NCBI GenBank assembly: GCA_010015585.1
Contig: ML975150.1
Length of the DNA: 64,000 nucleotides
DNA from: Eremomyces bilateralis CBS 781.70
Lineage: Eukaryota
Reading direction: 5' to 3' (one strand)
Part shown: piece by piece, positions 2,759-57,768 of the stretch
Position numbering within the stretch: position 1 is the first letter of the stretch
Layout of the letters: every line of letters starts with the position of its first letter
Notes under the pieces: generated by a model
The model's database searches: none
Told to the model about the DNA's origin: nothing
Seen by the model: only the letters and a program-made list of their open reading frames with translations
Made by a program: the position numbers and the translations under genes

Positions 2759-5700
2759 ATGTCTCGTATCCCTATTCGAGGCCTAGCGGATATACTCCTT
2801 GCCAAAACGACACAAAGGCATAGTAGGGACCAAGAAGGAAGCTCTTCAAAGAAGAGGAAGATTAAGGAAGAACTTGTGGACGATAGAGAATTCCTAGCTG
2901 GGTTTAGTGATGACGAAAGTGATTATAACGTCAGTCCTGACCTACATGCCGTAAGTATAATGGATATAATAAATCTGATAAATATTCAACAGAATGACTT
3001 ACAGGTAAATAGGATCTTGCCTCTGATGACCTTACAGAGAACCTCATTGGCCTCCAGACTGACCAGGCTGAAGTCGTTGACGATAATGAGACAACCCTTC
3101 TAGATCTACACGATCTTCGGCTGCTCGAGCAGTTCCAGGATCCTGAAGAGGAAGATATAATACCAACGGTTCCTGTCGATACTATCGATGAGGACGATAT
3201 AGAGACTGTTATATCTGCCACAGTTGGATATCAGCCATCTTTCACTGCCGCACCTTCTACCGCTGTATTTGACACGGTCGCTGGTCCTAGTCACGTCACT
3301 GCTGAGGCCACTGCGGCCATCCAACCGCCTGCGGACTTCGACGACTCAACACCTGTCCCCAACCCTCGAGCAGCCCCTACATCAGACTTTGAGGTTGCAC
3401 TCGGCCTATGGTGTCAAGAGGCAGGTATCTCACGCGCTCAGTGGACAGGCCTTCGAGAAATCCTTAATATGCTGAGCGATGACGCTGTAAAGAAGCTGCC
3501 AAAGGCCCTAGATACCCTGAAGCTACATGCTGTTGGCCAACTCCCTCTCCTTGAGCTCCGTCAGACCCCCATCAAGCTTAATATTGCCAAGCTGCCTGCC
3601 TCAAGGAGGAAAATCATTATGAGCAGAGCATTAGCAGCGGGTCAGGTTGCCACTGCGCCTGACAACCTCTTCTTCTTTAACCCTATCTACCTCTTCCAAG
3701 CTATTCTCTCATCAACGATCCGCGAGCGTATGCATATCGGAATGGCCCATTTCGTTGATGAGCCGGCAGAGCTCTGGCACTCTACCGCCTGGGCCTCTTC
3801 AATCCGCTACTCCTCCGGCGAGTTCCCGCGTCTCCCCGAAGGCCAGGTAGTCTTTCCGTCTGATATTGTACTATACCAGTGCAACGAAGCTATATGCCGC
3901 TGCCACACAGACGCTGACAAAAATCACATCGGTCGCATTCTCTCGTTTGGTAGAGACTACCGTAGCCAACGTGAGCATCGTGGCCCTATTGGATCGGTCG
4001 TCGTCGAGGTCCAAAAGATCGTTCCGTTCATCGATCTTATGGATACACGCCGGGATCTCTTGCTCATGATCATCAAGCTTGACCCTCTGCCAGAAAATAA
4101 GGAACTAGTGATCCTAGAGGATGATATTTCTATGGTTCTCGAGAGTGCTCTTACTCCATATACCTTCAACTTTGACATCTTCCTTGACTATGCCTTCGAG
4201 AGCAGCGTTAAGCTTAGAGACGACAAGAGCCATATTCAAGGCCAGCTCTTTATCCGCCGTATTTTCCGTGGGGACAATATCCGCCCTCTAAACCAGTCTA
4301 GGGCTATCCGTGGCCAGATAGAGATAGCGGAATATGGTCGCCAGTATCTCGTTGACAAGTTTAGCAAAAGTTCTAACATTATCTCTATTCCCCTGCTCGC
4401 CTTTCTTGACGGGTTCGGCTTATTTCGGAACATGTACCGTACGATTATGGGGTTCTATCTCTTATTAGCGCCTCTCCGCAGTTCAGACCGTAATAAGAGG
4501 CAGAATGTCTTCCCACTTACACTCGGCCCGCATGGCAGCAACTTTACAGAGGTTACCGATGCCCTTAGAGGTAGAATAACACAGCTCGAACGAGGCATTG
4601 ATATGCTTATCACCGGTAAGCAGTTTACCGTCTGCGTCTCTGTTATGGCATATATTGGTGATATGCCCCAGCAGCAGACCAATTCAGGCTTCCGATCTGT
4701 CGCCGCCGAATCTACTTGCAGGATGTGTCTTGTCGAGACTGCCCAACGTGGCCTCCTTGATTTTGATATCGAAGCCCGCGGCCGATACCACTATGAAGTT
4801 ATACGTCAGAGGGCTTCTATCCGAAGCAGACCTAACAAGATCCAGAGGAAGATTACGGCCGATAAGTTAGGTATGGAAGCAGAGGACCCGGCATTGATGA
4901 AACTGAGTCCTGCTCTTGATCTCGTCCTCTCCCGTCCTCCCGATCCTTTCCACTCTGAACTCAATGGCATCACGAAGCTTACGCACCTTCTGTGGAATGG
5001 AGATCTCTTGACAAAAAAGGCCGCAGCCGAATATGGTCGGTTGCTCCGCTCTTTTCCGTTCCCTCCCGGATGGGGTCGTCTCCAAGCTCCTGAGCACTAC
5101 ATCGGAAGCTACTCCCTTCAAGAGCACGCCCGATGGAGCGTTATTGCCCCCTGCCTGGCTCGAGTTTGGTTACGCGAAAAGCATATCCAGAATGCGTACT
5201 TCGAGGGCGTCCATATTGCGTTTAAAGATATTATGGTCGAGATTGGTGAATCTAGCAAGAACCCCAGCAGACAGCTTGTCCCAAACTTGATCGTTACGGC
5301 GTTATCGGCGATTGCCAAGTCTAACATGCTCTGCACTGCTTCTCACCTGACGCAAGGAGAGCGTCAAACTTTCGATACGGATATCAAGCGGTGCCGTGAC
5401 ATGTTTAAGCGGCTCTGCAGAGCTGCTGCTCTTGCGTCGTCGAGTCGTCGGACATCTGTTAATCCGCCTGCCTCAGATACTGCCCCCCAGGTAGGCGGAA
5501 AATCAACTGCTAGCCAGATAGTCGTCTCATCGATCGAGACGCCAGGGCCAATGCAAGGACAGACAGCCATAGATGGTGCCCTCACCACAAAAAAGGCCAT
5601 CCAGTTCCAACGGGATCAGCAGAGGCCAAATGTCCATATTGGTTTACATTTTCAAGAGGTTCTCCGTGAGTATGCCATCCCTGCTAACGCGGGTGTCCTG

Positions 5701-6609
5701 CCTGGTGAGAACAAGCATAAGGAGTACAAGAATGCCATCCTCCTTACAAATAAGCGCAACCCTGAGAAGGACCTCCTCTAGCGCGAGAATATTCGTCAAA
5801 CCCTCCGCCTCGCCCTTACCGGTGCCTTTCCTAATGCCAAGATCACTAAGCAGCTCCAAGACATTGACCAAGCCTGTCCAACGCTCTTCCGCACTCTGTT
5901 TCCACAGGAGACTATGCGTCTGGCGATCGATGAAGATAATACCGGCGATACCGTCGAGAACATCATCTTTGACGATGGTCATCGTAATCCTACAGCGCAG
6001 TCTAAGATCCAGCAGAAGTATTGCCGCGAGACGCTCAAGCTCCCTACACGCCCGTCACATATGACAGCAGGTTTCCGTGGTAATTTATCCTCTGCCTATC
6101 TCCGAGACTATGGGCGGAACGTACACCATATGGGAACCAGTGTCGTCGAGTGGTGGAAGAAGTTCTCGTTTGATGCCAATAATAAGAGGACTACTTTTGG
6201 ACGAGGTGACTTCATCCAGGTCCGTGGTACCACCCTTAAGGTATGCGGTATCGACGATATCTTCACGCATGAAGCGCTGCCCGGCTATAAGCGCCTGTTC
6301 CTCATCCTGACGCCCACCTTGCAACCCACCGAACGTGTCGATCCTGCGCCTACCTCACAACACACCGGATGCGTCAATCCTGTATCGACCTCGCAAGCCA
6401 CCGGACGTATTGACCCTATTCTCAAGCTCCCTCTCCTGCGTATTGAAGGCGAGGAGCAGCAGTTCTTCGTCGGCCTTCCTGCTATCGAAGCTACCAAGCT
6501 CTTTATCCTCCCCGTCAAGGAACACGACGGACATGACAATGAGATACCGTTGGACAAGGATTCGGACACGCTGCTATATGTAAACTGGAGCAAGATCCAC
6601 TTTATGTAG
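2759..6609 (+). pseudogene. CMC/Plavaka-like DDE transposase (~1,260 codons) interrupted by a single in-frame TAG at 5779-5781
   Basis: Exon 2759-2950, intron 2951-3012 (GTAAGT...TGAC...TAG), then one frame 3013-6609 that includes ORFs 3469-5781 and 5914-6609. Motifs: FLDGFG..RN (D1), GDMPQQ (D2), CRMC, DPFH, RPNVHIGLH...GENKHK (E). Confidence 0.82.
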
Positions 6610-6832: not shown

Positions 6833-7149
6833 GCTGCACTGATGGCATCAAATGGGTGTCTGGGACCGATGGGACGAAAACAATACACCGGCATACACTT
6901 CCTACCGTGGGAGGTAAAGTCTCTCTACACCGACCACAGGAGCGCCGCACTACCTCTAACCCACCCAACTCTGTTCGACTCTTAACATGAAGGGGATTTT
7001 ACACGCGATACAGCGATGTATGTATAATACACAGGCTTTCCGATAAGCTTAGCAAAACATTCAAGCAGCATGGGGGGCTGGTTGTAACGAGTAAAACATT
7101 CCTGCAAGTGAACCACGTGATTAGTAGTCGATCTGCGGTGGACAAACCA

Positions 7150-7346
7150 ATCAACGGTATAGACCCCGATCAACCGTTGATATACCGTTGAATAAGTCTA
7201 TACGTATAATGAAATCAACGGTGTAGGCGAAAATCAACCGTTGAATGCGTTATACGAAGATGCGAAATCAACGGGGAAACTTCGGTTGATTCGTATCAAC
7301 GGTTGATTTCTTTCAACGGTGGATCAACGGTATATCAACGGTTGAT
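7150..7346. repeat. Right subterminal repeat array (TCAACGG / TCAACSGTTGA)
   Basis: About 10 copies, at ~7150, 7169, 7183, 7214, 7233, 7267, 7295, 7312, 7323 and 7334, in both orientations. Confidence 0.9.
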
Positions 7347-7370
7347 TGGCCCCTGCAAGTTCCACTACTG
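7341..7370 (-). repeat. Right terminal inverted repeat
   Basis: gttgattggcccctgcaagttccactactg. Confidence 0.95.
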
Positions 7371-7688
7371 ATCTACCCATCCCTTCTGCCTTAGGCCGCA
7401 AGGCCACAACATACAGACTGGGCGAAGCCCAAGACTGTCACAAATATTCATATTATTCATATTCGTGAAGAGCGAATATGAATAAGGGCCATATTCGTAT
7501 TCATTTATTCATTTCGGAGCTCTAGTACCATCCCATCGCCAATTTGATTTCAAAGCATTTGCATTACTAATCAAACATTACTTATCAGCTGTCGCCACTT
7601 ATACTGTTCGTCCAGTATATAATGACTTCATCTGCAGGGGAGGTAGGCGGGGAGGAGGCTGAAGAAATCTTGAGAAAGCTTGGGAAAG

Positions 7689-10600
7689 TTATCGAGCAAA
7701 TTCCATCATCGTAACTCTTCCAGACGCGTACCCGAATGCAACTACGCCTCCATAGACAGCAATGCGGCTTGGCCTATGCTCAAGAGGAAGCCAAAGGATT
7801 CGCTCGGTACGGCGACTCACCCATTGGTCCTGGACAAAGATAGAAGACGGAAGCTGTGAGCTAATTACAGGCGTAATATTAGAGGGAGTTTGTAAAATAG
7901 GTAAGGATCCTCGGTTGGTCTGAAGAGAGGTGCCGTCATTGGAGAAAGACAGAGTTTCGAGGACGGCCCCAACCTCGAGCGTCTGCAGCACTGCGCCCGA
8001 CCCGGCGTCCCACAGCCTGGCCGTCCCGTCACCCGAAGCCAACGCCAGCGTCTTGCCGTCCGGCGAGAACGCCATGGCCGTGATGGTGCCCGAATGGCCC
8101 TTGAGCCTCTGCAGCGCCGCGCCCGACCCGGTGTCCCATAGCCGGACGGTGCGGTCCCCCGAAGCCGACGCCAGCGTCTTGCCGTCCGGCGAGAAGGCCA
8201 CGGCTGTGACGTCGTACCCATTGCGCTTAAGCATTTGTAGTACAGCGCCCGACCCGGCGTCCCATAGCCGGACAGTGCCGTCCTCCCAACCCGACGCCAG
8301 CATCTTGCCGTCTAGCGAGAACGCCATGGCCATGACGGCGCCCTTATAACCCCTGAGAATCTTCAGCGCGCCGCGCTTATGACCCATGAGCCTCAGCAGC
8401 GCGGCGCCCGACCCGGCGTCCCATTGCAGGACGGCGCCGTCCCACGGAGCCGACGCCAGCATCTTGCCGTCCCATCGCAGGACGGTGCCGTCCCACGAAG
8501 CCGACGCCAGCGTCTTGCCGTCCGGTGAGAAGGCCACGGCAGAGACGGTGTCCGAATGACCCTTGAGTGTCTGCAGCGCGGCGCCCGATCCGGTGTCCCA
8601 TCGCCGGACGGTGCGGTCCACCGAAGCCGACGCCAGCGTCTTGCCGTCCGGCGAGAAGGCCACGGACAAAACGGGGCACTTATGGCCCTTGAGCATCTGT
8701 AGCGCGGCACCCGATCCGGCGTCCCATAGCCGGACGGTGCGGTCCCCCGAAGCCGACGCCAGCGTCTTGCCGTCCGGTGAGAAGGCCACGGCAAAGACGG
8801 GGCGCTTATGACCCTTCAGCGTCTGTAGCGCGGCGCCCGACCCAGCGTCCCATCGTCGGACGGTGCCATCGCACGAAACCGACGCCAGCGTCTTGTTATC
8901 CGGCGAGAAGGCCACGGCCGTGACGCAGCGCTCATCGAACTCGAGCGTCTGTAGCGCGGGGTCCTCATCGCCATCGAGCTTCTGTAGCGCGGCGACCCAG
9001 TAGCCCTTGAGCGTCGGTAGCGCGGCGTCCCCATGGCCCTTGAGCGTCTGTAGCGCGGCGCCCGACCCGGTGTCCCATAGCCGGAGGGTGCCGTCCCACG
9101 AAGCCGACGCCAGCGTCTTGCCGTCCGGCGAGAACGCCACAGACATGACGGGTCCCGAATGGCCCTCGAGCGTCTGGAGTGCGGCACCCGACCCGGCGTC
9201 CCATCGCCGGACGGTGCCATCCCACGAAACCGACGCCAGCGTCTTGTTATCCGGCGAGAAGGCCACGGCCGTGGCAGCGCCATTATCGACCTTGAACTTC
9301 TGTAGCATGGCGCCCCCATGGCCCTCGAGCGTCTGTAGTGCGGCGCCCGACCTGGCGTCCCATAGCCGGATAGGGCCGTCCCACGAAGCCGAGGCCAGCG
9401 TCTTGCCATCAGGCGAGAAGGCCACGGACGTGACGGGGCCCGAATGGCCCTCGAGCGTCTGTAGCAGCGCGTTCCATTTCTCCGAGACCCGGGGCAATTG
9501 CAATATCTCCCCGGATATGCGCCCTTCGAACTGCTTCCTTATTACGCTAGTTGTTGGTACGAATATGAGGCAACTCCAGTACGTCTGAAGTGGAGCCTGC
9601 TCGATCGCTGGCCGGTTATAGAGTATAAACCGCTTGGCGTCATAAATGAAATCCGAGAAACCAGGGGGATTACGCTCAGTAGCATGAACGACCTGGCGTT
9701 GATACGCAGGAATTGAAGCTGATGGTACGGAGCCGGAGATCCATTTCAACATGTGCTGGAACTTCTTCGGAAAGGTCTTCGAGCGGTTTATCCGGCTCGG
9801 AGGTATATTGACAGCGGTCAACGACTCTAAAGAAGTAATTGCGTGTACTCCTTCCGGAACCTTCCCCATCCATCCAAGAGCTTCAAGCCAATGAAGAAGA
9901 TGCTCCTGCAGGAACTGGTGTATATAGTCATTATCGGATGGTTGGATCTCGCTCCTTAAAACATGCTCGACCCAAAAGAGGCATGCGTACTGGACTTCGG
10001 GAGGAAGACTTTGCTCAATTTGGGTTCTCTCGACCTCGCTCGCAAGCAGGCCAGGCGCATCTAAACCGCAGATGTCTTGCTTAAGCCACTTCGACATAAC
10101 TTGTATACAGCTGGCTGCCAAAATCTGATGGGCTTGCTTCTTATCTATAAAGAGATTTAGATCCCGGCATCTTTCGCTATTAAGTAGAAAGTCGCGAAAC
10201 GAGGGGTGGTGTAGACGAAGCGGACGACTGTCAACTTTCGGGACGTCTAGGATAGCATGAAGATTCTTTAATATCTGATCGATATTTTGCCTAGAGACAC
10301 CGAGCAATAGGTAAAGCGATCTAGTAGAGAGCGGTGAGAATAGAATCGCAATACTTCCAAGGATATGCCGTTGCATATGGTATAACCTCTCCTGCTCTTC
10401 TGTAGAGTATTTTGGCCGGATGGCTTTCTTTAGAACGGTAGTGTATAGCTCATTGAGGTGCTCCTCTGGTGCGCCAGTTGATAAGCTACCTTTTAGGAGG
10501 GTTTGTAGTCTCTCATCGGCGAAGGGGCCATCTTGAATAAATCGGTAGGCAGTTGCCGCCCAAATGAACAATCCACCTGCCATCTTAACTAGGCGCCTGA

Positions 10601-11020
10601 TAATCTCTTCGCCTGGCCAGTAGGTATCGAGAGATCGTTCCTTCCTAAGAAGCTTGAGTTTATGCTCGAAGAAGATAGTGATGTCGTGGTCTATAATCGA
10701 CGGTGATATATCATGGAGTATAAAATCTCGGTGTTCTACATCCGGTATCTGGCCAAATTTATACTTGATTGATACCTCGGGGCGGCTTGTTAGAAAGATC
10801 CGCAGTCGAATCGTCTTTAATGCTCGAGCTTCAGCCAATAGGCTAATAATGATCCGGATATTATCATCATTATCGCACTCATCGAGGGCATCAACGATAA
10901 GAACGTACGAGGATTGGCAACCATTTTCGCGTAGCTTTAACAGCGGATGTAGGATAAGTTGCTGCCACTGGTCGCGGAGAGACTGGCTCGTAATATCGCG
11001 GCGCTTTTCAATAGCCTGCA
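7689..11020 (-). CDS. NACHT-WD40 (NWD, HET-E/HET-D-like) fungal NLR, 5'-truncated: Walker B present, Walker A and N-terminal domain absent
   Basis: Frame extends upstream of 10838 as AIEKRRDITSQSLRDQWQQLILHPL...VLIVDALDEC (Walker B), followed by FLTSRPE, GLFIWA, HPSFRDFL, HLLHWLE and 10 near-identical WD40 repeats (LQTLxGH..V.AVAFSPDGKTLASAS.D.TVRLWD). In-frame TAA at ~11064-11066 and no GxxGxGKS upstream. Confidence 0.9.
7930..9465 (-). repeat. High-internal-conservation WD40 tandem array (~126-bp unit, 10 units) with nested 33-bp and 51-bp duplications
   Basis: Repeated gaagccgacgccagcgtcttgccgtccggcgagaa; visibly more GC-rich than the NACHT part. Confidence 0.95.
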
Positions 11021-11128
11021 GCGGCTGTGTCAGTTTAGCCCTATCACTATCGCGATGAATACCTTACACATTCCGCCCCCAGAGCACTGGCAGATGAGCT
11101 GGGATTCGCATCCTCTCCAGGCTCGCAG

Positions 11129-14100
11129 ATGGCTATAAGTACATGGACATTCCTTCTACATCCGCTGCGCTTGCTATGCTCGGGTCATTTGAAGGCCCTA
11201 AACAGACGGTTTGCCGAGGACCGCAAAGGCTACTGCGATTTCAATCCCATCTCCATGATGGCCTCCAACGGAAGCGAGCCAAGCGACCCCGATTGCGTTC
11301 TCATCGACCACGACGACGTCAGTAACTACAACCCGGAGCAGATACTGCCGGAGCCCCCTGAAATTATTCGGCACATTCGCATGTGGTTGCAACCAACTGC
11401 ATACGACCTCGATAATGGTGAATACCGCAAGCATCAATCAACGTACTTACCCGGTACTGGGGTCTGGCTTACCTCCACCGACACGTACCAAGGGTGGCTG
11501 CACGGTGAAGAGAATGGGATGTTATGGATTAGAGGGATTCCTGGATCGGGCAAATCTGTAATGGCGTCGAAGTTGATCGATGACCTATCACAATCCCAAC
11601 CAGGAGTCCCGGTGCTGTACTTTTTCTTCCGTCAGATCATTGATGCTAACCATGAGCCTGTCGCGTTGCTAAGGGATTGGCTAGATCAGGTGATTCGTTA
11701 CAGCCCTCCTCTGCAGAAGCGGTTGAAGACGCACATATTGGGCCCGTGGTCCAGCCGGCCAGTTGGCGAGATATCAATGGACGATCTCTGGGGAGATCTG
11801 CGCATCGCCCTTTCCGGATTGCCAGGCAGAGTCTATTGCATCGCGGATGCCCTAGATGAAATGGATCAAGGTAATGACAGGTTTCTCGAGGCATTAGCGG
11901 CTCTCGGTAGCTGGAAACCAGACAAAGTCAAGGTTCTGATCACAAGTCGTCCAATCCCAAGTCTCGGGACCCCTTTGCTGAAGGCCAAGCCGCTTCAGAT
12001 TCGGCTTGATGAGGATATGGTTAATATTGACATATCCAAGTATGTTCGGCATGTCCTAGCAGCTTCGCCGATCACTCCTAGTGATCAGAAGCTAATCCAA
12101 GACGCTGTCCCTGGACGAGCGAGCGGGCTCTTTCTCTATGCAAAGTTTGCAATGGATGTATGTCTTGAACCTGGAGCAAACATTAAAGAAGCGTTGAGGA
12201 AACTCCCTGCGGGCCTGAACGCTCTCTACACAGACCTTCTGCGCGAACACGCTCGTAGATCGGGTGTTCCTGATGACACCCAGCTGCTCATTCTTCAGTG
12301 GGTTACTCATGCTACTCGTCCGCTGCGACTTCTCGAAGTCGCCGAGATGATCAACGTCACCTATAAGTCAAAGGTTGAGCGAGACCTCAAGGCTACTAAG
12401 AACCTTGTCAGACTTGCGTGTGGCCCCCTCTTGGAAATTCTACCGGATGAGACCGTTAGCGTGGTTCATCATTCTTTCACAGAATACCTCAAGGGCTCCA
12501 CTAGGCCGAATGGGCCCTCTGGATACCCCATTCTCGACCATGGCACGACACATGGGCGTTTTGCCCTTGCTTGCCTGGCATATTTGCAATCTGGTTGTCT
12601 TGACGAGGACAACATAGGTTGGAACTTTCGTCGTGAGGCGTCTCCGCTGTGGCTGAAATATCCCTTTCTCAAATACGCAGCTACCAACTGGTACACTCAT
12701 GTTGCAAGATCTGCTGCTGCCGAGTATCAACAAGCCGACGTCAACAGAGCCCTCGACAGACTCTTCGAAAACCGCCAACGACTGAACGCGTGGCTCAATA
12801 TCGGCTTGCCATTTGATGAGCGCGTACTTCACAACTGCCCCGGAATGCGATCAGCTCCATTGCACATTGCTGCTTACACTGGGCTTACGCGATACGTCAA
12901 ACATCTCCTCGATTTTGGATCTGTTGACGTTGACGCCGAAGATGAAAACGGCAGGACTCCGCTGTGGTGGGCAGCTAGTCGCGGCAATGCAGAAATTATC
13001 CGCCTCCTACTGAACGCTGGATCTAACCCCGACAAGGATGACAGTGAATTCGGACTGAAGCCCCTGCACAAGGCTGCAAACCAGAATCACTTCCAGGCCG
13101 TCAAACTCCTGTTAAATGCTGGAGTGCACCCCCTGACTGAAAAAACGAAAGAGGATTCAGGGAATTTTTGTGGCAATGCCCCGAGAACGGTTGGCCATAC
13201 GCCACTCATGGTAGGTTGCTGCCCAGGTTTTAATACCTGAAATGATGCCTTCGGGTTGCTCTTTATCTAACTCCGTTTATGTAGTACGCATGCCATGCTG
13301 GCCATCTTGAGACTGTTGAGGTCTTCCTGTCCTTCGTCAAAGACTTTGACACCGTACATCGTGCTTTGGCTTGGGCAGTTCGGGCATCCCGCTCTGAACT
13401 TGTAGAATTGATTCTCCGACATCCTGGTGTCAATGTCAATGCGAAAATTCGCGGGGACACGCCGCTGTTCCTAGCGTGTTGCGTCGGCGATGCTCAGTCC
13501 ATCGCGCTCCTCATTAATGCAGGAGCGGACCCTAATATCCACTGCGCCCAAAGCGGAGACGAATTTGCGGGGTTTCAGCTCAGTGTTCCTTCTTCCCGGA
13601 GACGCGACCATTCTCGTGGTTTCACGGCCTTACACAGCTTGTGTAGCGGGCAGGAGAGTGGCAGCTCGCGAGGTTGGGACCTTGACGAGTTGCAGAGCGC
13701 CATTCGCCTTGTCGTGAGAGCTGGTGCCGATATCAACCAACGAGACACTTATGGGGACACACCGCTGTATAATACATTAAGAAGTCCCGTTCTTGTCCGC
13801 CTTCTTCTTGATGAGGGAGCGGATGCAAATGTCGAAGCCGAGGATGGGTCTGTCCCTCTTCATCATGTAACCTCGACGGATTCAATGTGTCTCCTAATCG
13901 AGCACGGCCGAGCCGACATCAACAAGCGCCAGGCAGACGGCCGAACGCCGCTTCTTTGCATGCTCCGTACAGCAGGCACGGATGCGATCTCCAAGTTCTT
14001 GGAATACAACCCAGACTACAATGTCGTTGATAAGGATGGAAACGGAGTACTGCATACGCATCTACTTGGAGGGTACGCTGCTGCGTCTACCATGAAGGCG

Positions 14101-17100
14101 TTGCTCAAAGTGGGTGCGGATCCCAACCTAAAGAACCGGTTCGGCCAGACCCCGATGCATGTCCTTGTTCAACGCTACGACGATATGCACGAGAAGATCG
14201 ACGTTTTGCTGGAGGCGGGCGCTGACATAAACGCAAAGGACAGATTTGGCGCTTCAGCACTGCATTTCGTCCTCCCTCGTACTTCTACATATAAACCTGG
14301 AAAGGAGCCGCATAGTGATATCAAGCTACTTTTGGGCAAAGGCGCATCGCCAGTTGTGCGCGACTTCAAAGGCCGTACTCTCCTCCATGAAGCGATGAAG
14401 AATCTGGAGAACCCCCATTCAAATATCAATTATAAGCTAGATACCAGACGATTTGAATTTCTGCTCAGCTTGGGCCTCGATCCTCAAACCGTCGATTACC
14501 GCGGAAACAATCTACTTCACGAGCTCGCACGGCTACGGGCTAACAACAATAGCTATGTTGGTACAGCACTCGTTCCCGTCTGGAAACAGTTCATCGCGCT
14601 GGGAATCAAAGCAGACCAGTGCAACGACTATGGACGGACGCCATTGCATATTCTATGTATCCAACGGCCAGACCATGCCAGCTCAAAGCTTGGAGAGGTC
14701 AGTGTGATGGACTTCATGACTTCTTTGACTGAAAATATCAATATGGCCGATAGGGATGGCATTACGGCCTTGCATTTGGCAGTCACAGTGTCTGAGAGCC
14801 TTACCAAGAAGCTTCTCGCTGCTGGCGCTAATCCGGAAGCCCGGACATTGGAAGGGTTGACCCCACTGCATCTTGCTGCTCGTGCAAGACAAAGCAATAT
14901 CGTAGGGATGCTACTTGATGCTCTTCACCAGAGGGATCGCGGAACAGATCCTATGACAGAGCTCTGGTCAAGACGCAGTGGCACATCGGCATCGCGAGGT
15001 ACGCCTGGGCAATTGGACTATGCCCCTAACGGCATTGATGCAGAAGATGGACATGGATGGACGCCACTCTGTTACGCGTGTCGGTCTGGGAGGCCAGAGA
15101 CCGTTGCCTTGCTACTTCAGGCCAGCGCCCACGTCAAAGATGAGCATGTCTTTGAGGCTTGTGCCGGTTTTGAGGACGAGCAAGCGCTCTGGACGAAACT
15201 CGCTCACGAGGCTGACAAAGAGGTCAATATCGATGCAGGCGGCCTCAAACTTAACGATATAACTCGCCCAGTTGTCCGTAAACATCCGAGTCAAGACCCC
15301 TGTGACTTAGATTCAAACAACGAGACGACGAGGTTGGAAGAGATCCTCGACATGCTTGGGAATAGAGGTGCTAACATTTCCCGCCTAATACGCGGAGCGA
15401 TGCCGATGCGTTGGCAAGAGGGCAATATTAGCCCTCTTGGAGCTCCTGCGGCTCATCATCAAGACAATACCGTTTCACGTCTTACGAACGTCCGCGGTGA
15501 AAGCCCTACATACGATACAACAGCCAGCACTATGGCGTTGTTTGCTGAGCATGCTAACAAAGATCAGCAGAGTGCCGCCCCCAATGTCTTGCGCGAATTT
15601 ATGCCTATCGAAAAGGGAAGCAGTAACCAAGCGATCTTTTACTCGGTCCTGAAGCGGCGAGAGTACACTCTGGTCGAGGAGCTATTCCGGCTAGGAGTCG
15701 ACTTTCTTGCTGTGGACGGCCATATAGTGGTCCCCACTGTGTTCAACGGCGTGGATGTCGAGCTTTATTGCTCCGTGAAAATTAGCAACCTTGGCCTCCT
15801 TGTTCGACACGGATTCGCCTTTCTGGTCGAAAGGATAGGCAGTCTCGAAGCCGAAGCAAAGCTCAACGAAAGTTCATCGCATGTGGCAGGAAGCGAGTCT
15901 CCCCATGGTCTGGGATGCTACACGGAGAATGATCTCCAGGGTTCCAAGTCTGGTAACGCCCGACCAGCTCCATTGTTGCTCGAAGCCGTCCGCCGTACTT
16001 TGCCTAATATGGATGTCGTTCGCTTGCTCGTAGAGAAGTTCGGCGTTAACATCAACGAACTCTTTTACGTCGAGAAGTATGCCGACAACGACTATAAATC
16101 GGTGCCATCTGATAGTGCGCTGCATTCTCTCGCAAAAGGCTGCGCTTGGTGGCATGTCGCGTTGGCACTTCCGTACCTCGTCGATAAAAAAGCGAATCTC
16201 GAGATCCGCAACTGCGAGGGGCAAACTCCCTTGCACATCGCCCTTAGTGGACAGTATGGCCACCACGAGCCGTTCTACATGGAAGCGGTACGTGTCCTTG
16301 TTGCTGCTGGTGGGGATGTCAATGCTGTGGATCGAGATGGACGAAGCTGCCTTGCCTATGCGGGTGGTGACATGGACATGACTTGTCTGCTTCTGTCTCA
16401 CGGAGCTAAGCAGACCGCTGATGCCTTGTTAACGGCAGTCCACAACATGCAGATCAAGGTGGTCGAGAGCTTGCTATGCGCTGGCGCCAACCCCAATTTA
16501 CGGCTCGAACACAATCTTAAGCCTTCCAAACGGAGGACTTATGGAAGCTTTGAGGGGTCGAACGTTGGCCGCAAAATGGACAGGCATGAGTGGTACGCTG
16601 TGTATTATGCTGCCAAAAATTACAAACCCTCGGGCAATTGCTCTACAGAAGTGGAGAAAGAGAAAAAACAAAATGTTGTTCGTCTCGTTGAGACGCTTCT
16701 GGCGCATGGAGCGGATCCATTTGCGGAATTCAGGATGTCCCCGAGGCGGGGGTTTATGCCTACCGGCATACTTGAAGAACCTGAAGGCAAAACCAAAAAT
16801 CCACAGGCCTCATCAACTATCGCACAAGCTGCGGAGCAGAGTCTTAAGCCTGTCCTCAAAAGCTACGAGGAATGCACGGTCCTGCACCAGCTTCTGATAA
16901 CTGGTGGCCTTGTGCGTCCCTTCCTTACTCTCCCTGGTCTGAATCCGAATTGCCTAGACCCTCACGGTAGGACCGTCCTACATGCGGCATGCCAGAGCAT
17001 GCTCGGTCCCGACGTGCCCATTGATGTCATTGACGAGGACGAGTGGGATGGTACACAAATGACATGCCCGTCACTACTGAGCCATTTGCTTTCTCTCGGC

Positions 17101-17838
17101 GCAGATCCAATAGCCCGCGACATTTTCGGGCGGAACGCTTTGCACCACATGGTCGAGCTACGCAGAGCCCCCCATCCCAGGCCCAACCCAGCCGTTGCTA
17201 CCTCGTTGGAGGAGCTGGCAAGGAGTCATCCTATGTTAATCAACCAGCGTGACACTTCCGGACGGACACCACTCTACATAGCACTCGTACACGCCGTCAC
17301 CGTCTCTGATCCAGTACCGGCGCAGATATTGCTTGCCGCTGGCGCAGACCCGTTTTTGGCTGACTACAACAATAACACATTGCTTCACGTTACGGCACGG
17401 CGCTACTGCCCTAGATTGATGGCTCTGCTTAAAGAGCTGCTGTCGCGTGGCCTGGACGTGCATGCTCGCAATAACCATGGTGAGACGCCACTATTTTCCT
17501 TCTACAAGGCCCCTGACCATTACCACGCCCATCCTGGGAATGGGGCCGAGATTCTCACGGCCCTAGAGTCCTCAGGGGCAGACTTCAGTGTCCGGGATAA
17601 CAGAGGACGAGGCCTGCTGCATGTTGCTGCTAGCGGGCGGTATGCCTCAAAGTTCAAGGAGTTGCTTGCAAGGGGACTGGACCCTATGCTCGAGAATGAC
17701 AATCATCAGACCGCTCTGGATGTCGCAGCTGCATGTAATAACAGAGACGTGTTGGAGCTTTTCGAGCATAAGTTCAAATCGGAGCAAGTCCCCTTGTCCG
17801 AAGGGCGGCGAGAAGGGGAAATGGAGAACAAAGAATAG
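11129..17838 (+). CDS. NACHT-ankyrin repeat fungal NLR (~2,170-2,210 aa, two exons)
   Basis: Exon 1 11129 (or ATG 11255)-13210; intron 13211-13284 (GTAGGT..CTAAC..TAG); exon 2 13285-17838 in frame. PGTGVWL, Walker A GIPGSGKS, Walker B IADALDE, LITSRP, GLFLYA, HHSFTEYL, many ankyrin G.TPLH/GAD.N motifs. Confidence 0.93.
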
Positions 17839-17974
17839 CGCCATCATCAACCGGTGGTTCAACACGAATCAATGGATGCCACTGATAGGATATGAGCAAT
17901 TGCTATTATGCGACCCTTCGTGGTCTTCTGTAATTTTGCGAAGGACGATATCTGCTTTTGAAATTTTGCTTTTC

Positions 17975-18490
17975 CTATGCACTTATCCATTCCTTCATCC
18001 ATCCAGTCATCCATTCATCTCTCAGTGGTTCCAACCCCCTAAGTGTTTCACTTGACTTCAGAGTCTTTTCCATGGCCAGTTTCATTCTTAGTCCTCGGTC
18101 ACCTTGATATTGCAGACCCTCATAGAAATCGAGCAGCTTCATGGCGGGATTCTTTCGCGCCAACGTCGCAGCGTCAACCCCACCAACATTTTCCGCTTCT
18201 GCACTCTTCGCCTTCAACGTCGAAAGCCAGTCGGCGTACGGAACAACCTTGATCGGCTCCGGAGATGGAGCCGGATCTTCGAGCGTCTTCTGTATGGGAA
18301 GGAGAAGGGACGACCAAGGCACAGGGTTCGGATGCAGAATCTGGAAAACGGACACGCCCGACTCTGCTTTTTCTTCGTCACCGGGCTTCGAATTCAACCC
18401 CAGCTCGATGACCACGTCGGCCAGCTGATCAATCGGCACCCAATTGATTTCCTCTCTAGCCGCGGGAACATCGCCCAATGTCTCGGGGAC
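17975..18490 (-). pseudogene. C-terminal fragment of an NRPS-like/thioester (NAD-binding) reductase domain
   Basis: INWVPIDQLADVVIEL...HPNPVPW...VPYADWL...NPAMKLLDFY...LRGLEPLRDEWMTGWMKEW* resembles reductase-domain C-termini; no upstream part is present. Confidence 0.7.
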
Positions 18491-18539
18491 TGCAAAATAT
18501 ATTGATATCCACCGATAGTCCTCCTCTCAACCATCTGAA

Positions 18540-19738
18540 ATGACTCGATTTGCCCTAAATCATGTCATCAACGAAGCCCGCAACTCGTATAAAATTATCA
18601 AATCCCTCTCCCCTTAGCCTCCCAAGCCAAAATAGTCGGGTCCTCCACATTGTGAGTTGAATCCACAAGCTCCACATCGACCGCCATCCCCATCGCGACT
18701 AGTTATCCCAAGCGCTGCGATCAAACAACCCCCGAGGAAGAGACCGTCATCCTGTATTTCCACAGCGAGGCGTTGATCTACTCCTTCTCGTCGATCGCAG
18801 AGTCGCCGTATATCTTCCAACTACTTGAGGAGATCGAAGAGCCGGAAAAGCGATGTATGCTCTTCGAATGGATGGACACGACGCTCTGGGACGCGCGGAC
18901 GGAGCCGTTCGATGCGAAACTAAAGATATTCAAGTCAGTGGCGCGGTTGTGCTTGAAGGGTTACTTGCGTTCCACCACTAGGACATAGGATAGTATGGAC
19001 CGTACTGTCACGCATGTGACCGGCGACGGCAGAAATTCTCAGATACGCGCGCTTAAAGTACCGATGTTATGATAGAACTTCACCCAAAAAAGGTTGTCCT
19101 CAGTGGCTTCTCAAGCCCTTCGCCAACCGTCAAGATTTCTGACCTGGGCTGGAGTAAGTCTCAATCCGTCCTTGTTTACATTTCCAAAGCTTACTCGTCT
19201 AGTCATGTCGATGAATTCTCCCGATGGGTCCCGAAAGTCCTATTACCAATGGATCCAAGGGCCGTCTCTTCGCGCACCCGACGTGTGGCGAGGAGCGGAG
19301 GACTACTCCACCGTCATGGACGTGTGGTCCATCGGCGTTCGTGTACGTTTCCCCTTCGACTTGTAGGACCTGACTCTCACCAAGTATCCAGCTTGCGGAT
19401 TGGATGGGCGACAAAGCTCACTTTGGGCCCCGTGGATGCATAATCGAGACTGACGAGCCGATCGAAACTACCCAAGCTGTGTGGGCCATTGTGAAGCTTC
19501 ATAAGACCCTAAACCAGCCCCTTTCTGAGTCGCTGAAGGACAAGTTTGACATGGCCTGGGGCATCGCTGAACACGTCCTTGAAGAGAATATGTTCTTAAA
19601 GCGAGTCTTCGGGAGCAGATGGAACAGCTGCAGATGCCGTCCGGGAATATCGGCTTCCTAGAGACATTGCTCACAGTGAATCCGGATAGACGACCGTCGC
19701 CGGCCGAAGCACTGGATTTGCCGTTCGTCAAGGAATAG
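18540..19738 (+). pseudogene. Degenerate fungal Ser/Thr protein kinase
   Basis: ATG 18540 followed by in-frame TAGs at 18615 and 18633. Kinase motifs are scattered over several frames: MLFEWMDTTLW, LHPKKVVL..VKISDLG, LRAPDVWRG, DVWSIGV, LLTVNPDRRPSPAEAL. Confidence 0.75.
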
Positions 19739-20243: not shown

Positions 20244-21378
20244 TCACCTCCCCCCCGCCGCAAACTGCTGCCTCAACATCATCAACTGCGCCTTCTCCGC
20301 CGGCGGCATCGCTTCGATCTGCGCCGGCGACAGCGACATCACCTGCCGAATCAAATCGTCCCGCCCGCCTAGCGCTGGCGCCGGTGCCTGCTGCGGTGGC
20401 GGAGCCTGCATTCCGTATTGTGGGGGCGGGGTCGGGGCCGCGCCCATTATGGGGTTGGACATCGGCGGGTATTGTACTTGATACTGCTGCTGTTGTTGGT
20501 GTTGTGGGGGAGGGGGGTATCCCTGCATGGGGGCCGGCATGGGGGCCTGCATATTCGGTTGCGGCGTCGGCAGCGGCTGCGCGAGCACGGCGGCGGCCTG
20601 CTGCTGCTGCTGTTGCGGGGCGCCGGCGACGTTGATGTGTTCGAGGACGGAGGCGAGGACGTCCTGCTCGACGAGGCCGAGGAGGAGGAGGGATTGGAAC
20701 ACCGCGTAGGAGAGCTGCGGGGCGGCTTTGAGGAGCTCGGTGGCCTTGGATGGGTCGGAGGCCACGAGGCCTTTCATCTGCGAGAGGATATCGAGGAGTT
20801 GGGCGGGGGGGAGGGTTTTGAGGGTAGTGGAGATGACGTCGATGGCGAGGAGGTTGGGGGGGACATCGGCGCCGGGCGGGAGGGGGGGGAGGGAGGGGAC
20901 GCCGGACATCTGCTGGAGGAGGGACGGATCGGGGTGGGTGGTGAGAGGAGGCGGCGCGGTGTAGTTGGACGGGACGGAGTGGGACTCGTGGGCGGCGCCG
21001 TCGTTGGAGTAGTCGACGCGGAGCTTGCGGCCCATCATCTCGTAGTCGTTGAGGTTGCGGACGGCGGAGGCGGCGGCATCAGCATCGATGAATTCCGCGA
21101 AGCCGAAGCCTTTGGGCTTGCCGGTTTCTTTGTCGTAGACGAGGCGGAAGTTGAGGACTTGGCCGACGCGGGAGAGGGTGTCGATGATGGTTTCTTCGGT
21201 GACGCCTGGGGATTGTGAGTGGATGCGATAGGAAGGGAAGTGTTGGGGGGAGGGAGAAGGTAGAAGGTAAGATGTTTGTGAGAATTCACTCCTTGCAGTA
21301 TGTTTGCGGAAGGGGGAAGTGAAACTCACCGTAGGGGATATTCCCAATGAACACCACACGACCAGCTTTCGACGCCAT
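20244..21378 (-). CDS. RNA15: Cleavage stimulation factor 64-kDa subunit / RNA15 homologue
   Basis: ATG 21378 MASKAGRVVFIGNIPY; intron 21329-21206; RRM (LVYDKETGKPKGFGFAEF), hinge (QLLDILSQMK...PQLSYA) and C-terminal LIRQVMSLS..QI..MPP. Confidence 0.92.
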
Positions 21379-22129
21379 CTTCGTACGTGCTTGTTCGGTC
21401 AATCCCTTCAAAATTCTGACGTCCAACCAAAGGAGATTCTAAAATTAAAGGTGGAAGAGCAATGGCCAATGTTGAGCGAGCGGAGCGGCGAGGGGATCAG
21501 TCCATTGTTGAATGCTCGGCGGGTGTCGATCAAAGTTGAAGTTGAAGCAATGAATTCATCACCATTTGTTGATGCCTGACGATTGCAATTTTCGCCTTAG
21601 GAATTGAGATGACAAGGGTAATGCGAATATGGACCAATCACCGTTGGTTAAAGTTGCTTGCCTGACGATTGAATGATGCCTGAGGAACTCACACAGACAC
21701 AACATAAACACAAGACATCAATTGATCGATCAGGGACCGAGAATTCCATCGCTGGGGTGACTGAACTGGGTACGCAGTATTGAGGTTGATATTGATATGC
21801 TAGATAATAGAGAACATCCATCCTTCCTATCCACACAACTGTGTATAGCAGCACCTATTATTGAAACGATCTCGCCAAACTTTTCCCAATACCAGACAAT
21901 AAGCATCGCAGTATCGATTCTTCAATACGTTAAAGATGTCACATCGAATACCGAGCGACATTGTAATAGATATACAGCCATATAGCAGAGCCAACAGAAT
22001 CCCTACACACAAAAACAATGCAGAGATCCATTCTGTCGCACAACAATATACCTACATATCCACCGAACCCTAAATAATATCCTGCAATCGTCCGTCTGCA
22101 ATATCCAAAACACTTCTTAGGTAACCCTC

Positions 22130-54933: not shown

Positions 54934-55540
54934 AGATAAGGGCGGGGATAGCGCAGAACCACAGTACGACTCCGGACTAACTAGAACCCATCCAGTTCGC
55001 ATTGAATTGGAGGGCATTGCAGCAATCAAAGCACGATTGTCCTAGAATTTGAATCGTAAGGGCGAGGTGGAAGTCATTACTATAGTCAACTACATAGAAA
55101 TAACCTGGCCCAATCAAAAAGCCCACCTTCCCTCAAATGATCACGATGACCGGTTCTCGCAGGATCTCCTCGCAGGAAATCCGAGACAGAGATAAGTAAT
55201 CTGACGCTTATGTTGCCTAGACGCCTAGGATATTCCCCTTATACAGAAACGGTACACTATATCCGACAAGGAGGAGACCATGATCCATGGAGGCGTTCCG
55301 GACCCCTCACCCTGCAGTTACTACGTCCCTAGAACCAGCAACCATTGTCCAATCGCCACGAACGTGGGTGGTGATGAAGGTGAGATTCTCAAATACACCG
55401 AACTGATACCACGCGTAATCGGTTGCCGTTTGTGTATTGATAGATACGCTGATGGACGAGTTGCTTGTTGGATGAGGGGGCAATTCTGTACTACTGGCTA
55501 GCATCGGTACTATATATAACGGGAGGCGAACTCCCTTATC
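54934..55540 (+). promoter_or_regulatory. Amine oxidase promoter: TATA-like box and HGATAR (GATA-factor) sites
   Basis: TATATATAA at 55511; AGATAA at 54934 and 55190; TTATCG at ~55536. Confidence 0.3.
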
Positions 55541-55617
55541 GTCACCTCTACGTCCTCATTGTCCCCGAACTTCATCTCCTATTGAATCTTCAAGTCATTC
55601 CCGCAAACGATCTCACT

Positions 55618-57768
55618 ATGTCTCCTCCAGCAGCCACCGAGATCAATGGCTCCTCGCCCCCCATCCGCTCCAAACCTTCCTCCACCCCTCACCCCCTCTC
55701 CCCCCTCAGCGCTGCCGAGATCCAATCCGCCGCCTCCCTCATCCACGCCCTCTTCCCCGCCACTGTCGACCTCCACTTCAAAACCATCACCCTCCACGAG
55801 CCCCCCAAAGCCTCTGTCCTCCCCTTCCTCGCCGCCGAACGCTCCGGCGACCCCACCCCCTCCCTCCCCCGCCACGCCTTCGTCAACTACTACATCCGCA
55901 ACACCAACCGCCTCCATGAAGCCATCGTCGAACTCTCCTCCGCCTCCGTCGTCCAGAACAAACTCCTCCCGAAAAATTACCATGCCCCCGCCGATAGCGA
56001 GGAGCTCATCGACCTCGAGAAGATCGCGTTGGCGGATCCGTCCGTGCAGGCGGCGATCGCGAAGCTGCAGCTGCCCGAGGGCACGGTGGTGGTGCTGGAC
56101 CCATGGATCTACGGCAGCGACGGGGTGGACGACGACGAGCGGATGCACCAGTGTCTAATGTACATGCGCGACCCTTCGAACAGCGAGGAGGTGGACTCGA
56201 ATTACTATGCGCTGCCGCTGCCAATCTCGCCGGTGATGAGCGCGGTGGATCACCGGGTGGTGCGGGTGGATGTGGTGCCGACGGGGAGGGATAATGCGAT
56301 CAAGGAGCTGGGGAAGACCACGGTGTATCCGGCGAATGAGTACTTGCCGGAGTATCAGACGCTAAGGACGGATTTGAAGCCGTTGCAGATGGTGCAGCCG
56401 GAGGGGGCGAGTTTTACGGTGACGGAGGCGGGGGAGACGAGCGTGTTAGAGTGGCAGAAGTGGAGGATGAGGGTGGGGTTCAATATGAGAGAGGGTCCGG
56501 TTCTGCATGATGTAGGTGCACCCCTTTGTGGTAGGAGGAATTTACTGACTCTCTAGATTTCGTACGAGGGTCGACCGCTCTTCTACAGAGTGGCACTGGC
56601 GGAGATGAACGTCCCCTATGCGGATCCACGAAGCCCTTTCCACCGGAAGTCGGCCTTTGATTTGGGTGATGTTGGAGCGGGTCTTATGGCGAACAACCTC
56701 AAGCTCGGATGTGACTGTCTCGGATCCATCCACTACCTCAACTCCGTGTTGTCCGACACCAAAGGCAAACCACTGCCCATGGAGAATGTGATCTGCATCC
56801 ACGAGCAAGACGGCGGCATCGGCTGGAAGCACACCAACTTCCGCACCGGCCGCGCCGCCGTCGTTCGCCAGCGCCAGCTGGTCGTCCAAACCATCATGAC
56901 CGTCGCGAACTACGAGTACATCGTCGCCTTCATCTTCAACCAAGCCGGCGAATTCACCTTTGAGGTCCGCGCCACCGGCATCCTCAGCACCCAGCCCATC
57001 GACGAAGGCCTCTCCGTCCCCTGGGGCACCGTCGTCCACCCCGGCGTCCTCGCCGTCCATCACCAGCACATCTTCTCCCTACGCGTCGACCCGCACCTCG
57101 ACGGGCAGAGCAACCGCGTTGTCTACGATGAGGCGTCCCCGATGCCCAAATCCGACTTCAACCCGCACGGTAACGGGTACGAGGTGCATACGACGCCGAT
57201 CACGCAGTCGGGCGGCTACGATCTCGACCCGCTACGCAACCGGCTCTTCAAGATCCAGAATGCCGGCGTCAAGAACCCGATCAACGGCCTCCCCGTTGCC
57301 TACAAGATCGTGCCGCCGCCGTTCCAGTTCACGCTCTCGGACCCCTCGTCCTTCAACCACAAGCGCGCCGAGTTCTCCGATCACAACATCTACGTCGTCA
57401 AGTACGTCGACCACGAGCTGTACCCGGGGGGTCAGTATACCAACCAATCGCGCGGCGGCACCGGCGTGCGCAGCTGGGCAAATCGGAAGGAGAACGTGCT
57501 CGACGAGGATCTGGTGGTGTACGTGCAGATGGGGATCAACCACGTGCCGCGCATCGAGGATTTCCCGGTGATGCCGGTGGAGACCCTGCAGTGCCATTTC
57601 AAGCCGGTGAATTTCTTCACGAAGAACCCCGCGATGGATGTGCCGCCGAGTGAGCAGCGGTTCAATCAGAGTACGCTGGTGAGTGCGCAGCATTGTCAGC
57701 CGGGGGTGGAGGGGGTGGTGACGGCGGAGGGGACGGTGGAGACGAATGGGAGTGCGTGCTGTAATTGA
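55618..57768 (+). CDS. Copper amine oxidase
   Basis: HPLSPLS, WQKW, VPYADP..AFDLG, LGCDCLG, TVANYEY (TPQ site), HQH and later GINH copper ligands; intron ~56512-56557. Confidence 0.95.

Follow-up and report, generated by a model that had tools for sequence, protein, structure and literature searches.

Architecture of the Locus

Two genes of the NOD-like receptor (NLR) type lie head-to-head on opposite strands, at most ~236 bp apart, on contig ML975150.1 of Eremomyces bilateralis CBS 781.70, within a 64 kb stretch of DNA that was analysed as a whole and is referred to here as the window. The minus-strand gene is of the NACHT-WD40 (NWD) type and lacks its 5' part, and its plus-strand neighbour is a spliced NACHT-ankyrin (ANK) gene. 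Together they are probably best described as a recently 5'-truncated NWD relic adjoining an ordinary, intact NACHT-ANK gene. A public protein from Eremomyces bilateralis CBS 781.70, P0007 ('WD40 repeat-like protein', 894 amino acids (aa)), corresponds to the minus-strand open reading frame (ORF). Residues 1-76 of P0007 are exactly ORF residues 161-236, which places its start at ORF codon 161, and beyond a modelled intron 817 of 822 residues agree with the ORF, the 5 mismatches being located at the start of the second block. This near-exact match assigns the window to E. bilateralis CBS 781.70, a Dothideomycete, or to an identical strain.

From its N-terminal end the NWD ORF codes for the remainder of a NACHT domain, followed by a linker and ten WD40 units of 42 aa, and it ends in a conserved tail (Table 1). 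Its best full-length matches, P0004 and P0006, are 57-62% identical, and the NACHT and post-NACHT region gives 1253 matches to NWD proteins at E <= 0.001. At least nine same-species proteins are among the best 120 matches and the eight besides P0007 are paralogs, 52-58% identical. The WD40 repeats are recognised by Pfam with an E value of 7.9e-119, and in the scan of the whole ORF the best 25 of 56 matching families are all WD40 or beta-propeller. Within the N-terminal 528 residues Pfam finds part of NPHP3_N (profile positions 91-164 of 164), together with a weak winged-helix match and a further match at chance level, with the NACHT model itself remaining below scoring on the remainder. P0006, a paralog from the same species, is matched by NPHP3_N at positions 12-164, while its first ~70 residues match no Pfam family, even at E <= 1.

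The original prediction described an NWD gene of ~1,100 uninterrupted codons without Walker A or an effector domain, and this description is borne out. The frame runs for 1124 codons, the Walker A pattern GxxxxGK[ST] is absent from all 1124 residues, and no integrated extra (decoy) domain is seen, either among the best 25 of the 56 families matched over the whole ORF or in the scan of the N-terminal 528 residues. Walker B is retained as VLIVDALDE at 10878-10904, with its conserved aspartates present.

Loss of the 5' Part of the NWD Gene

The truncation is sharply delimited. In tblastn with four homolog N-termini, NWD homology begins at 11015-11018; an extension to ~11033 is possible by eye, and the conserved columns Q-L-A just upstream of the breakpoint read H-R-D in the remainder. 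BLASTP alignments enter P0004 (Phaeosphaeriaceae) at residue 122 and P0006 at residue 153, and the P-loop of both proteins, GLAGTGKST, is found 60-70 residues ahead of this entry point. No relic of the lost N-terminus is evident in the three minus-strand frames up to 11300, nor is it present on either strand of the window (tblastn, E below 0.01), the sole other matches below this threshold being to the P-loop region of the ANK gene itself, which is a distant relative. The first ATG in frame is codon 161, at 10583, with none earlier in the ORF. The NWD gene has lost its promoter, its start codon and at least 110-150 codons, and the loss extends beyond the P-loop alone to about half of the nucleotide-binding fold. 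A P-loop nucleoside triphosphatase (NTPase) without strand 1, P-loop and helix 1 is unable to bind nucleotide.

A deletion or some other rearrangement would have broken the gene at a point ~220-236 bp upstream of the ANK start codon. Promoter and start codon would have gone with it, as would the first 120-150 codons, which encode the P-loop and the opening half of the NTPase fold. The remaining protein, if made, would be unable to bind nucleotide or to act as an NLR switch, because nucleotide binding is lost and no ATG precedes codon 161. As one of two options, the original prediction had suggested that an NWD gene was decapitated by a recent rearrangement, and the sharp breakpoint, the missing start codon, the absence of any relic of the lost part and the absence of decay agree with it.

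An ATG at 11109-11111 (minus strand) is in frame with the NWD ORF and separated from it by a single TAA at 11064-11066. An upstream mini-exon was considered here, in which the ATG at 11111 is combined with a 45-nt GT..AG segment (11025-11069) whose removal would excise the TAA in frame. It was not adopted, given a weak donor, a branch point that is too close and the lack of any such joint in the contigs. The P0007 model, for its part, omits ~70 residues (ORF 237-306; window 10146-10355, minus strand) that are conserved in P0004 and P0006.

Three runs of contigs were compared with the window. X1 and X2 are DNA contig runs, possibly from the sample behind the assembly and hence independent of the assembler but not of the sample, while X3, labelled only 'RNA?', is treated as RNA because it is the only run with the spliced ANK junction. 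Two further runs with the same species label, X4 and X5, contain next to none of the sampled words and were left out of the comparison, so they do not speak for an absence. The contig data carry no strand, transcript start or expression level. X1 record 7 (9244-16095) and X2 record 16 (10960-19000) both cross the junction, including the whole of 11.0-11.3 kb, with no differences. Since DNA contigs bridge it, the junction is real and no assembler artefact, which is compatible with a sample-specific event; the misassembly that the original prediction had named as a finding that would speak against it was not seen. An artefact, either as a misassembled junction or as a full-length gene with its 5' exon elsewhere, is therefore scarcely credible, even though the WD region does split short-read contigs into repeat-collapsed pieces, because two DNA runs agree across the junction and N-terminal NWD coding sequence is absent from both strands of the 64 kb.

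The intron joint of the P0007 model (10146-10355) is not found among the X3 contigs. The model, with its internal methionine start and an intron over conserved residues, looks wrong or cryptic, and caution is due with the public 894-aa annotation, which splices out 70 conserved residues.

The NACHT-Ankyrin Gene

The ANK gene is composed of two open frames on the plus strand, 11039-13240 and 13285-17838, joined by a single intron. The intron cut fits equally well one base further left. In X3 the depth of the bin that holds the intron, 8.8, equals 10.7 x 343/417, and this arithmetic suggests that no X3 contig lies over the intron. The spliced product has 2169 aa, with Walker A (GIPGSGKS) at 11534-11557 and Walker B (VYCIADALDE) at 11831-11860. 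Pfam matches in the protein are confined to NPHP3_N/NACHT, winged-helix and ankyrin families, with no N-terminal effector domain, so that the earlier description of a partner with both Walker motifs and no recognisable N-terminal effector holds.

Relatives of the ANK protein are numerous and uniform. All 120 listed are 54-63% identical over the NACHT domain and 117 of them measure 1945-2206 aa; they come from Pleosporales, Colletotrichum, Diaporthe, Trichoderma, Fusarium, Xylariales and others, across Dothideomycetes and Sordariomycetes. Of the 11 family members shown, 10 have starts that line up with the methionine at 11255, the exception being P0152, which has a longer modelled N-terminus. 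Residues 2-2146 of the product align with residues 1-2063 of P0124 (2075 aa), and colinearity with P0124, P0125 and P0148 extends over nearly the full length. By these alignments the gene is complete and belongs to a conserved NACHT-ankyrin family of ~2100 aa; it is not a fast-evolving, lineage-specific partner. Compared with Pezizomycotina members of this family (P0124, P0125 and TRIREDRAFT_104180, here P0156), it shares the sequence D-V-S-N-Y-N-P-E-Q, Walker A and B, the winged-helix domain, the long ankyrin array, the length and the colinearity, with no structural difference. No described function was found for the family, although no literature search was aimed at it.

The ~35 aa before the NTPase domain (11255-11360, plus strand) are conserved in the family as D-[VI]-S-[ND]-Y-N-P-[ED]-[QH] and belong to no Pfam family. 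It was considered whether this segment might hold a motif of the amyloid type in common with a neighbouring gene, and this was rejected, as the window has a single copy and no relative locus has two.

Spacer and RNA Contigs

The two genes are separated by 65 bp if counted from 11063 to an ATG at 11129, or by ~220-236 bp if counted from the end of NWD homology (~11018-11033) to the family-conserved ANK start at 11255. Both the divergent orientation and the short spacing that had been predicted are thus confirmed. The ANK promoter and 5' untranslated region must fit into the stretch that runs from the NWD breakpoint to the ANK start codon. X3 contigs cover the ANK gene from 11187, where record 20 starts, onward, whereas for 9910-11186 and 11639-12168 no long X3 contig is listed and bin depths are low (0.9-5.4), values that are not firm on transcript starts. 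The plus-strand neighbour is an ordinary, complete and expressed member of its family. One X3 contig of 6208 nt extends from 15075 across the 3' half of the ANK gene towards a CstF-64-like gene.

Table 1. Features of the NWD/ANK locus, in window coordinates; the last row refers to coordinates on metagenome contig L035.
Feature	Position	Strand	Basis
5'-truncated NACHT-WD40 (NWD-type) gene remainder	7689..11063	-	open frame, 1124 codons + stop
C-terminal tail after WD array, conserved in P0004	7692..7988	-	alignment
WD40 array, 10 units of 42 aa; four with in-frame insertions	7989..9464	-	Pfam, repeat analysis
Tandem micro-duplications in WD40 units: 33 nt (2.2 and 3.7 copies), 51 nt (2.1 copies)	8339-8409, 8417-8523, 8940-9060	-	repeat scan
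C-terminal part of NPHP3_N/NACHT NTPase domain	10782..11021	-	Pfam; Walker B inside
Homology breakpoint against full-length NWD proteins	11019..11045	-	tblastn, alignment, three-frame translation
Spacer, NWD breakpoint to ANK start codon	11034..11254	.	X3 contig starts at 11187
Exon 1, NACHT-ankyrin gene; Walker A and Walker B inside	11255..13210	+	ORF, Pfam, family start
74-nt GT..AG intron	13211..13284	+	spliced out in X3 contig record 21; present in X1/X2 DNA contigs
Exon 2, ankyrin repeats, to stop	13285..17838	+	ORF, Pfam
ANK-like and NWD-type genes of L035	9866-12158 and 20835-22151	same strand	tblastn

Conservation of the Pairing

A family-profile scan of metagenome contigs returned 79 loci with ANK relatives. 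Identity reaches at least 46% in 26 of the 79, and in 23 of these 26 the contig extends for at least 1 kb on the upstream side of the deduced start; several of these loci are near-identical contigs from different samples (L002/L003/L004 and L015/L016/L019). The loci were queried by tblastn with the NACHT part of the NWD remainder, its WD part and the first 600 residues of P0006. Upstream of the ANK relative, NWD-type NACHT or WD40 sequence is found in none of the 23 informative loci. NWD-type sequence occurs in one of the 79, L035, where it is downstream and on the same strand; the ANK-like relative there is only 37% identical, and the NWD-type NACHT gene, 41-42% identical to the queries, stands in tandem with it, ~8.7 kb apart. 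All other tblastn matches are the ANK-like NACHT domains themselves (21-30% identity), and the WD query matched none of the 79 loci. Among 22 upstream ORFs from 15 loci no NACHT or WD40 domain is present, and five have other domains (cytochrome P450, cytochrome b5 reductase-like, DUF3433, amidase and ankyrin). The NWD/ANK adjacency is not conserved among close ANK relatives on these metagenome contigs.

These results bear on the first-named proposal of the original prediction, a sensor/helper NLR pair on one bidirectional promoter. In such a pair the NWD protein would sense through its WD40 repeats and the NACHT-ANK protein would signal. The divergent orientation with at most ~236 bp between the genes and the RNA contigs over both of them would suit such a pair. 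It is nevertheless highly unlikely and receives no support from the comparison, as an NWD gene lies upstream in 0 of the 23 informative loci, the ANK proteins form a conserved family that is complete by itself, and the NWD gene has lost half of its NTPase fold together with its start codon, which is more than the loss of a P-loop. Plant head-to-head pairs (RRS1/RPS4, RGA5/RGA4 and Pik-1/Pik-2) resemble the locus in being divergent with a very short spacer and in having one partner without P-loop function. Plant sensors keep the whole nucleotide-binding domain, usually with an integrated decoy; such pairs are also summarised in PMC12258605. At the present locus, in contrast, the start codon is missing along with half of the fold, Pfam finds no extra domain and the pairing is not conserved in the relatives of the intact partner.

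For two NLR genes to stand head-to-head is, moreover, within what chance allows; if orientation is random, 25% of neighbouring pairs are arranged in this way. In a survey of Sordariales, 13 head-to-head pairs are counted among 225 two-NLR clusters, and head-to-head NLRs are there judged to be rare in this order and not convergent on the plant type (PMC12258605). With a truncated NWD gene beside an ordinary ANK gene, the head-to-head geometry would be a by-product of the rearrangement, without functional pairing.

State of the NWD Remainder

A number of observations weigh against the view that the NWD remainder is a dead relic. No stops occur across its 1124 codons and no decay is visible. A stop would arise from 383 of 10116 possible single-base changes; the probability of a frame remaining open falls to P = 0.05 at only ~0.023 neutral substitutions per site. 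Of the 141 columns that at least 90% of 109 homologs have in common, 9 are mismatched in the remainder, 4 of them upstream of the breakpoint. Past the breakpoint this amounts to 5 mismatches in 137 conserved columns, compared with a homolog median of 5 in 141 (n = 109), and over the 141 columns 10 of the 109 homologs have as many mismatches as the remainder, or more. Indices of repeat-induced point mutation (RIP) are negative over the remainder, and the four WD insertions are all in frame. Furthermore, X3 contigs match 7667-8069, 8177-8516 and 9107-9909 of the remainder exactly, with their strand not given, and the public annotation has a gene at this position. An untranscribed NWD gene, which the original prediction had listed as an observation against it, was therefore not seen, since X3 RNA contigs lie over the locus. 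With a real junction and RNA over the locus, some residual function is possible.

Since no decay is seen in the remainder, the 5' loss is recent or the remainder is still useful; the intact remainder and the RNA fit retained function equally as well as a very recent event. In terms of pseudogene features, a disabling lesion is present in the form of the 5' truncation, signs of neutral decay are absent and RNA contigs are present. On the reading of a truncated relic, the remainder would be non-functional and the event recent, and the RNA over it would derive from cryptic or bidirectional initiation.

The units of the WD40 array average 72% amino-acid and 82% nucleotide identity (10 units, one genome), with variation at few positions; the array was called polymorphic in the original prediction, which goes beyond what a single genome can show. 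The insertions derive from 33-nt and 51-nt tandem duplications, and the loops added by them (11, 33, 17 and 11 aa) either follow the GH dipeptide or fall within the strand B-C region. WD spacing is irregular, at 50-79 aa in 3 of 10 intervals compared with 7 of 546 in 65 homologs (Fisher p = 0.0005), an irregularity that could reflect relaxed constraint. The duplications may predate the truncation, because the 33-nt copies are already 18-24% diverged (76-82% matches).

A truncated but functional gene is the principal alternative and is considered unlikely. Here, a protein starting from codon 161 or later, made up of a helical region and the WD40 propeller, would act alone; it might modulate full-length NWD paralogs, as a decoy or in a dominant-negative manner, comparable to NRG1C in relation to NRG1A/B. 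The open frame, the normal conservation, the in-frame insertions, the confinement of WD unit variation to few positions and the RNA contigs all agree with such a product, and the eight same-species paralogs would be possible targets of interference. A precedent is offered by NRG1C, described in a preprint as an N-terminally truncated plant helper (bioRxiv 10.1101/2021.01.27.428547). However, the protein product is putative, with neither strand nor start of the RNA given by the contigs, intactness is equally expected of a recent relic, and the irregular WD spacing argues against it. In addition, WD arrays of NWD pseudogenes are reported to be near-intact through repeat exchange in a Podospora anserina study (PMC13449251).

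The likeness to NRG1C, an Arabidopsis helper NLR, is partial. According to the preprint, NRG1C too has lost its N-terminal part and adjoins intact NLR genes, but it antagonises its own full-length paralogous neighbours, whereas the neighbour here belongs to a different NLR family and any function is putative. By analogy, and as a distinctly doubtful possibility, the decapitated NWD gene may have been retained as a truncated NLR that is divergently transcribed from the ANK promoter region. Its winged-helix and WD40 protein would titrate ligands or poison full-length NWD oligomers, as a fungal counterpart of plant inhibitors of the NRG1C type or, less likely still, would feed recognition into the ANK NLR. 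Truncated regulatory NLRs are known in plants and none has been described for fungi in the literature searched. The locus would matter only if the remainder were functional; as a truncated relic beside an intact gene, it is an ordinary product of NLR turnover and, if that is true, a further case of fast birth-and-death turnover in fungal NWD genes.

Relation to Podospora Genes and Genomic Context

The nearest described parallel is with the NWD/HNWD genes of P. anserina, which include HET-E, HET-D and NWD2. These likewise combine an NPHP3_N-type NACHT domain with 42-aa WD40 units, show raised identity between units (82% at the nucleotide level in the present array) with variation at few positions, and have transposon-related DNA beside the gene. 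Unlike them, the closest full-length relatives of the E. bilateralis gene (P0004-P0006) have no N-terminal effector domain recognised by Pfam. Many NWD relics, some without minimal NACHT motifs, are reported for P. anserina in the study cited above, which also associates NLRs of high internal conservation with transposons (PMC13449251). The present remainder differs from those relics in being free of RIP, stops and frameshifts, its lesion being a clean 5' truncation.

Past the NWD stop, at ~7372-7524, is a high-copy element with a DNA word depth of 34535 compared with ~239 in the single-copy flanks, and many contigs break at this high-copy repeat (7370-7372, 7442-7446 and 7524-7526). Short palindromic ATCAACGGT/ACCGTTGAT-like repeats are clustered at 7100-7370, ahead of the element, and the segment 6500-7333 has roughly threefold depth. 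Beyond these, the ORF at 3013-6609 (plus strand; 922 + 275 codons) has one in-frame stop at 5779-5781 and no Pfam match. Transposases of the Plavaka and Transposase_21 types are among its nearest clusters in the ESM Atlas (scores 0.90-0.96), which is no more than a lead, and the ORF is probably a decayed DNA-transposon gene. On the other side of the locus, a CstF-64-like gene at 20244-21398 (minus strand) contains an RRM, a CSTF2 hinge and the CSTF C-terminal domain.

The earlier remark that nearby accessory genes carry stops or truncations holds in part: the single stop of the transposase-like ORF 3013-6609 was examined in detail, while the copper amine oxidase ORFs at 55453-57768 were noted. 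The latter enzyme is encoded in two abutting plus-strand ORFs, 55453-56556 and 56557-57768, in which an in-frame stop splits the domain at profile position 40, the split being either an intron that holds the stop or the mark of a pseudogene.

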